Of a stretch of 7,711 nt of DNA, positions 4,243 through 4,412 are shown piece after piece. Source of the DNA: Escherichia coli. GTDB lineage: Bacteria; Pseudomonadota; Gammaproteobacteria; Enterobacterales; Enterobacteriaceae. Both the position numbers and the translations under genes were made by a program. How positions within the stretch are numbered: the first letter of the stretch is position 1; each line of letters begins with the position of its first letter. Location of the stretch: the NCBI RefSeq assembly GCF_003334255.1, contig NZ_QOWU01000094.1; one strand, written 5' to 3'. The notes under the pieces were generated by a model. That model had not been told where the DNA came from. It did no database searches and saw nothing but the letters and a program-made list of their open reading frames with translations.

Positions 4243-4412
4243 TGTCAGAACGTAAAAACTCAAAATCACGCCGTAATTATCTCGTTAAATGTTCCTGCCC
4301 AAACTGCACCCAAGAGTCAGAACACAGTTTTTCAAGAGTACAAAAAGGTGCCCTTTTGATCTGCCCTCATTGCAACAAAGTATTCCAGACAAATCTTAAA
4401 GCTGTAGCCTGA
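4243..4412 (+). CDS. ynfU: Small zinc-ribbon protein, 56 aa (possibly YnfU)
   Basis: ATG 4243 with AGGA about 7 nt upstream. Sequence MSERKNSKSRRNYLVKCSCPNCTQESEHSFSRVQKGALLICPHCNKVFQTNLKAVA has CxCxxC...CxxC and a basic N-terminus. Followed by a hairpin terminator. Track ORF starts at an upstream ATG (4191) without an SD. The name rests on my recollection of a Qin putative zinc-binding small protein and is uncertain. Confidence 0.55.

Follow-up and report, generated by a model that had tools for sequence, protein, structure and literature searches.

ynfU, a gene for a probable zinc-ribbon protein in the Qin prophage of Escherichia coli, and its linkage to cold-shock genes

The ynfU gene in the Qin prophage

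The stretch of Escherichia coli DNA analysed here (7,711 nucleotides; hereafter, the window) covers the lysis and cold-shock region of a K-12-type Qin prophage. Its gene order in RefSeq is nohA, ynfO, ydfO, gnsB, ynfN, ynfR, ynfQ, cspI, rzpQ, rrrQ, ydfR, essQ (which carries the label essD in the RefSeq record), ynfU, cspB, cspF, ydfT (quuQ), and ydfU. The gene ynfU is an open reading frame (ORF) of 56 codons plus stop on the plus strand (4242–4412), which runs from an ATG at 4242–4244 to a TGA at 4410–4412 and is translated as MSERKNSKSRRNYLVKCSCPNCTQESEHSFSRVQKGALLICPHCNKVFQTNLKAVA. A first-pass annotation had recognized this ORF and its peptide, both of which are borne out by RefSeq identity and by family HMMs, and had placed the start at 4243, one base too far downstream. 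An in-frame upstream ATG at 4191, which would give a 73-aa version, was rejected as the start: it is not conserved, in contrast to the Shine-Dalgarno (SD) sequence and to the ATG at 4242, which is also the start given in the annotation.

The window contains 54 ORFs of at least 40 aa, and hence ORF size alone means little. The 56-aa product is 100% identical to YnfU of E. coli K-12 (b4776; RefSeq WP_211180497.1, "putative zinc-binding protein YnfU"). Of 5426 complete E. coli genomes, 1651 carry the annotated ynfU, to which our ORF is 100% identical, and a 461-nt query around the ORF matched MG1655 and many further strains with 100% identity. Full-length HMM matches above the curated cut-off place the protein in the YnfU family, namely Pfam PF23499 (YnfU; E 3.9e-31, residues 1–49, for a model of 49 positions) and NCBIfam NF038384 ("YnfU family zinc-binding protein"; 79.4 bits, with a cut-off of 36). 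The protein in the window is the founding member of this family and shows no difference from it. The median dN/dS of ynfU is 0.11 (593 pairs). Translation of ynfU was demonstrated by Ribo-RET, which relies on stalled initiation complexes, and by SPA tagging of the chromosomally encoded protein (Weaver 2019); of the small proteins newly identified there, tagged YnfU was the most abundant in LB at 37 °C. PIRT-seq (2025) independently found its translation again. These reports answer the doubt about translation that had accompanied the first-pass annotation, and it is virtually certain that the ORF is ynfU and a real coding gene.

Weaver 2019 also described YnfU as a product of Qin that carries paired zinc knuckles. 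The gene, its expression, and the zinc-knuckle motif have thus been published since 2019 and are annotated in RefSeq, Pfam, and NCBIfam, and all the points of the first-pass annotation were already in the literature or in the annotation; the observation is correct but already known, and as first reported it matters little. No function is assigned to YnfU in the literature searched or in PF23499 and NF038384, in keeping with that annotation.

The neighbour of ynfU on one side is essQ (3807–4022, minus strand), which encodes a 71-aa holin with an MKSM dual-start motif and is a divergent neighbour of ynfU in Qin-type prophages only; the distance between ynfU and the essQ start at 4022 is 220 nt. 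The essQ ORF extends upstream to a GTG at 4097 (3807–4097, minus strand), which gives an unannotated 96-aa version. On the other side, cspB (4776–4991, minus strand) is convergent with ynfU, and cspF (5292–5504, plus strand) follows. Coordinates and annotation agree with the earlier placement of the ORF between the holin start and cspB and, because Q and the lysis genes are encoded on the other strand, antisense to late transcription.

Several other small genes were observed in the window. Directly after cspI, ynfQ (1693–1881, minus strand) encodes a second Cys4 mini-protein (CPCC...CIFC, 62 aa) from an ATT start that most of the homologues recovered in other genera share; owing to this non-standard start, the gene was missed by the ORF lister. 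A 21-aa ORF, ynfR (1625–1690, minus strand), lies between ynfQ and ynfN. YnfR is reported to be strongly cold-induced (PMC6001520), and YnfR and YnfQ, both from this prophage, are cold-induced according to the literature. With cspI-ynfQ-ynfR-ynfN-gnsB and ynfU-cspB-cspF, the prophage segment is a cluster of cold-shock-type cargo genes. Just after cspF lies a 29-aa hydrophobic ORF (5559–5648, plus strand), listed in RefSeq as the hypothetical protein WP_120795389.1.

Promoter, leader, and terminator sequences

Alignment of 26 ynfU upstream regions from different genera (alignment A3) revealed a common block of ~65 nt, all other upstream sequence being unrelated. In the window, the block includes a candidate −10 hexamer, TACTGT (4209–4214, plus strand), of the family pattern G-TAnnGT, whose G47, T48, A49, G52, and T53 columns are invariant in A3. 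The three positions that matter most in a −10 hexamer are those of the T, the A, and the final T. A candidate −35 hexamer, GAGAAA (4186–4191, plus strand), is located 17 bp upstream of it, with an A/T-rich stretch before it and a G at hexamer position 3 that is nearly invariant in A3. The SD sequence, AGGA (4231–4234, plus strand), stands 7 nt before the ATG and has a GGA core that is invariant or nearly so in A3, which justifies its earlier description as a good one. As judged from the alignment, the block reads as a sigma-70-type promoter belonging to ynfU itself and conserved across genera, from which a leader of ~20 nt would be transcribed. No stable structure is predicted for this leader, taken from ~4221 (−1.5 kcal/mol; the fold is at least as good in 188 of 200 shuffled sequences).

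Other regulatory candidates in this region were rejected. A promoter found by scanning at 4154–4183 is not conserved outside E. coli-type sequences, and 4186–4214 was preferred. A perfect 7-bp inverted repeat, CTGTATA-N8-TATACAG (4211–4232, plus strand), overlaps the proposed −10 hexamer and ends at the SD sequence; it is found in E. coli-type sequences only, and the bases that are conserved fit the −10 hexamer instead. An RNA thermometer or regulatory leader was not retained, because the inverted repeat is not conserved in other genera and the fold of 4190–4260 is not better than that of shuffled sequences (z −1.1). Between essQ and cspB, genomic SELEX shows peaks of the RpoH and RpoE holoenzymes, which were set aside because their resolution was too low and the coordinates were self-converted.

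Between ynfU and cspB, a G+C-rich hairpin at 4475–4494 is predicted to be stable on both strands (−21.1 and −17.1 kcal/mol; z −4.9 and −5.2). A U-run accompanies it on the minus strand only (UUUUUUAUUAUCU), and a consensus scan likewise calls a terminator on the minus strand only, so that the hairpin mainly terminates cspB and could at most be bidirectional. The hairpin noted after ynfU in the first-pass annotation does exist, then, but as a canonical terminator it serves cspB and not ynfU. If cspB transcription ends there, the cspB 3′ UTR would be ~280 nt long (4495–4775, minus strand). The same spacer has a weaker terminator-like site at 4581–4597 and carries an IS200C insertion in some E. 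coli strains; in other genera, the spacer between ynfU and the csp gene is only 120–420 bp.

The 5′ UTR and coding region of cspB match the cspA-type thermoregulator RNA (Rfam RF01766; 4760–5152, minus strand; 158.8 bits, E 2e-42), and so do the leader and coding region of cspI (1865–2250, minus strand; 112.8 bits). No cspA-type thermoregulator was found at ynfU: the Rfam matches cover only cspB and cspI, and the ynfU leader is at most ~50 nt.

Neighbours of ynfU across genera and phages

YnfU homologues were recovered from 62 species-level genomes, all of Enterobacteriaceae genera save a few oddly labelled metagenome bins. The family is small, with 44 representatives among 1.84 billion proteins; it is restricted to Enterobacterales, and most of its genes are chromosomal. 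The flanks of ynfU are ordinary metabolic or chromosomal genes in several genera: Raoultella has it beside the bud operon, Klebsiella beside a PTS operon, and Enterobacter beside pptA, and the flanking genes are rsmF to yebY in Kluyvera and maeA to adhP in Leclercia. Distant members (30–42% identity) are solitary chromosomal genes with no adjacent csp gene; AFDB50 lists entries of the family from Serratia, Budvicia, Limnobaculum, and Winslowiella.

We found that the consistent neighbours of ynfU are cold-shock genes. Of the 62 species-level loci, which are not phylogenetically independent, 45 have a cold-shock-domain (CSD) gene no more than 600 bp from ynfU. At this distance CSD genes number 0.72 per kb, versus 0.027 per kb in the outer flanks, a 26-fold enrichment. 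This linkage occurs across genera in at least four arrangements or orientations. The commonest layout (16 of 62 loci) is that of the window, with ynfU, a convergent cspB-like gene, and a cspF-like gene as the third member of a recurrent cassette; tandem, divergent, and csp-upstream layouts were also found, and in Yokenella the ynfU start follows a cspF-like gene by 36 nt. Among prophage contigs, a csp gene was present within 600 bp downstream of ynfU in all 80. A YmcF/YnfQ-like Cys4 mini-gene is located near ynfU in 15 of the 62 loci, often divergent and ~150 bp upstream. Neither the linkage of ynfU to csp and YmcF genes nor the conserved promoter block was found in the literature searched; both are new here and constitute a modest lead.

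The first-pass annotation had framed ynfU by the lysis operon. Adjacency to that operon is real in the window, and an EssQ-type holin is upstream of ynfU in 66 of 75 prophage contigs, yet it is not a conserved neighbour: Qin-type lysis or Q genes are found no farther than 6 kb from ynfU in just 5 of the 62 species-level loci. Because the neighbours that persist across genera are cold-shock genes and not holins, the position beside the lysis operon is regarded as incidental, and ynfU is probably part of an autonomous cassette linked to csp genes and not to lysis.

These counts also bear on a phage-directed role, in which YnfU would regulate late transcription or lysis timing or would act as a lysogenic-conversion or superinfection-exclusion factor. 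Such a role would account for why ynfU occupies the Q-to-holin interval and runs antisense to the late operon. The gene diverges from the holin in Qin-type prophages, in phages HannyBb, Tritos, 2H10, and PhiR42_1, and in Klebsiella phage ST13-OXA48phi12.4. The Q-to-S interval is, moreover, the classic site of lysogen-expressed cargo genes in lambdoid phages. The rarity of lysis genes near ynfU and the many loci among ordinary metabolic genes nevertheless speak against it, as does phage PHB10, in which ynfU and two csp genes are located close to the integrase and umuDC, away from any holin. Profile searches point the same way: no defence-system family (PADLOC) matched YnfU at E ≤0.1, and no PHROG was significant, the best (E 0.002) being a family of unknown function. 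We consider a phage-directed role improbable.

The csp-linked cassette can be compared with the "morons" found in the Q-to-S interval of lambdoid phages, which, like ynfU with its putative promoter, are autonomous opposite-strand units between phage operons and are expressed in the lysogen. The ynfU unit has a conserved, predicted promoter-like block and a hairpin after the gene, and it is also present at non-phage chromosomal sites. It differs from lambdoid morons in being mostly chromosomal outside E. coli, and this distribution implies that the phage is a carrier and not the origin of its function. For annotators, ynfU is better read as Q-to-S cargo than as part of the lysis cassette.

Some further features of the phage loci were recorded. 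The cspF-to-Q interval of HannyBb (4650–6880) is ~2.3 kb longer than that of Qin and is annotated only with many ORFs of 30–45 aa; searches of it for tRNAs, Rfam families, and repeats gave nothing. In several Enterobacter-type elements, including phage PHB10, ynfU-csp-cspF is beside umuDC and a gene for an SOS-response-associated peptidase. The gene lpxP encodes a cold-induced acyltransferase. In an Enterobacter prophage (bioRxiv 10.1101/2023.09.14.557762), ynfU-csp-cspF is also beside lpxP.

The YnfU protein and its possible role

YnfU contains two CPxC knuckles, C19-P-N-C22 and C41-P-H-C44, with a conserved S26-E-H-S-F30 strand between them, which is the signature of its family. In a 27-sequence alignment reaching down to 30% identity, C19, P20, C22, C41, and C44 are invariant, and S26, H28, S29, and P42 are at least 90% conserved; the cysteine pairs on which the first-pass annotation had relied, and whose loss in homologues would have spoken against it, are therefore retained throughout. 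The AlphaFold (AF2) model, a prediction of moderate confidence (core pLDDT 82–86), consists of four short strands (14–18, 25–29, 38–40, and 47–49) that form a small sheet with the knuckles at beta-hairpin turns. Together with the family HMMs, this model upholds the earlier recognition of a small zinc ribbon with two Cys pairs, a proposal for which HMM and structure-prediction checks had been named; YnfU very probably has a zinc-ribbon fold, in which the two knuckles (C19, C22, C41, and C44) most likely hold one zinc ion. Conservation peaks at the ligands, at the S26-E-H-S-F30 strand, and at R32, K35, and G36 between the knuckles, and the conservation beyond the ligands suggests a specific binding surface. 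The basic character that had been noticed at the N-terminus extends to the entire family, with a median net charge of +7 and a median pI of 9.6.

A function mainly in metal handling, with YnfU as a zinc buffer, store, or chaperone, might be suspected from the four to five Cys and the conserved His within 56 residues and from the RefSeq name "putative zinc-binding protein". The fifth cysteine, C17, is kept among closer family members but lost in distant ones, so that the predicted zinc site is an ordinary Cys4 site made of the two CPxC knuckles, and the neighbourhoods examined contain no Zur-type or metal-homeostasis genes. An intergenic ynfU/cspB polymorphism in one silver-nanoparticle-adapted population could be cited in its favour; the variant is 277 nt downstream of ynfU, has a frequency of 28% in that one population, and is not functional evidence. 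The paper, which names ynfU in its abstract, was set aside as uninformative, since it offers a low-frequency intergenic variant only. A primarily metal-handling YnfU is very unlikely on these observations and was given the lowest standing of the readings considered.

Sequence and fold searches say that YnfU is a generic zinc ribbon and nothing narrower. Profile searches of the PDB returned marginal matches only: eL42 (E 0.003), Tim15 (E 0.0036 to 0.013), and the PhnA-like ribbon of PA0128. The N-terminal zinc ribbon of PhnA/YjdM proteins (PF08274; PA0128, PDB 2AKL) is a two-knuckle C4 ribbon with spacing similar to that of YnfU; PF08274 matches residues 19–44 with E 3e-4, and PA0128 was the top Foldseek PDB match of the first YnfU model, with a marginal E of 0.83, and a marginal phmmer match (E 0.11). 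The PA0128 match of YnfU was already mentioned by Weaver 2019. PhnA/YjdM proteins have a C-terminal PhnA domain, however, whereas YnfU ends 12 residues past the second knuckle, and their ribbon has no SEHSF motif; because the ribbon alone matches, YnfU was not taken as a member of that family. Membership in the eL42 (L44e) family was rejected as well. The match, E 0.003 at best, consists of two short pieces, and the knuckles of eL42 are separated by ~50 residues, with a ~35-residue insertion between the halves that contacts rRNA and tRNA, whereas only 18 residues separate those of YnfU, in which this long insertion is absent. All scores of YnfU against eL42 and against small ribosome-bound archaeal zinc fingers (HVO_2753-like; 9o17_AZ) are below significance, and a weak analogy was retained. 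Proteins of the YmcF/YnfQ family (PF23641) are, like YnfU, Cys4 mini-proteins (55–65 aa, two Cys pairs) encoded beside csp genes; no homology between YnfU and YnfQ/YmcF was detected by BLASTP, and the hhalign probability was 11%. The two also differ in gene arrangement, ynfQ being co-transcribed downstream of a csp gene and having an ATT start, and ynfU having a putative promoter of its own.

Resemblance to DNL-type zinc fingers (Tim15/Zim17/Hep1, PF05180) raises another explanation. Many bacterial small proteins dock onto larger proteins and modulate them, and DNL-type zinc fingers escort Hsp70. By analogy with these, or with anti-TRAP, YnfU could be a protein-binding adaptor whose ribbon and invariant SEHSF/KG surface dock onto and modulate a larger host protein. 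The pattern CxxC...S-H...KG..LI.CPHC is common to DNL fingers and YnfU, and Tim15 was the best PDB sequence match of the single YnfU sequence by phmmer (E 0.013). These matches are marginal, though, the zf-DNL Pfam model giving E 0.1, and the DNL (or DHL) motif that should follow the second CxxC is absent from YnfU, whose C-terminal tail is variable in the family; membership among the Hsp70-escorting DNL fingers was therefore rejected. The strong, conserved positive charge would fit nucleic acid better than a protein partner, and the gene neighbourhood suggests no partner except Csp proteins. An adaptor function for YnfU is accordingly doubtful, although less so than the metal-handling and phage-directed roles.

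As a whole, the observations are best explained, with a probability of roughly 0.55, by an autonomous, csp-linked zinc-ribbon cassette that is carried as phage cargo and has a role at RNA or the ribosome. In this explanation, ynfU would be self-contained and outside the phage lysis machinery, with its promoter-like block, its short unstructured leader, and a hairpin in common with the convergent cspB. The cassette would comprise ynfU and two csp genes, one cspB-like and one cspF-like, often accompanied by a nearby cspI-ynfQ pair, and would occupy several ordinary chromosomal sites of Enterobacteriaceae; in Qin-type lambdoid phages it would be a moron, placed as cargo between the genes for the Q antiterminator and the holin, where its orientation opposite to late transcription would make it expressible in the lysogen. 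Zinc would stabilize the ribbon of YnfU, and the ribbon would expose a strand and loop of invariant sequence (SEHSF-R-V-Q-K-G); these, together with the basic tail, may bind nucleic acid, most likely RNA or the ribosome. YnfU may thereby act alongside the Csp RNA chaperones in cold or stress adaptation.

The functional parts of this explanation are less secure than the whole. That the basic YnfU is an RNA- or ribosome-binding zinc ribbon for cold or stress adaptation is a tentative proposal. Slightly more speculative is the proposal that YnfU is an unrecognized part of an enterobacterial cold-shock toolkit, binding RNA or the ribosome together with CspB/CspF-type proteins and maybe also YmcF/YnfQ. 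Several findings argue against a cold-specific reading: YnfU is well expressed at 37 °C in LB, ynfU has no thermoregulator leader of the cspA type, and the distant family members have no csp neighbours. The neighbouring cspB is itself a cold-induced gene. The ynfU-csp linkage could also have arisen because small AT-rich cargo genes move together, and not because they have a function in common. In the literature searched, we found no cold-shift data on ynfU and no metal analysis of YnfU, and no experiments tying YnfU to cold shock, RNA, or ribosomes were found.

The linkage of ynfU to csp and YmcF genes, in chromosomes and prophages alike, offers a concrete and cheap experimental handle on a well-expressed, conserved small protein. 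If the proposed role is true, ynfU-cspB-cspF would be a mobile "cold-adaptation cassette" that has been picked up and spread by lambdoid phages.
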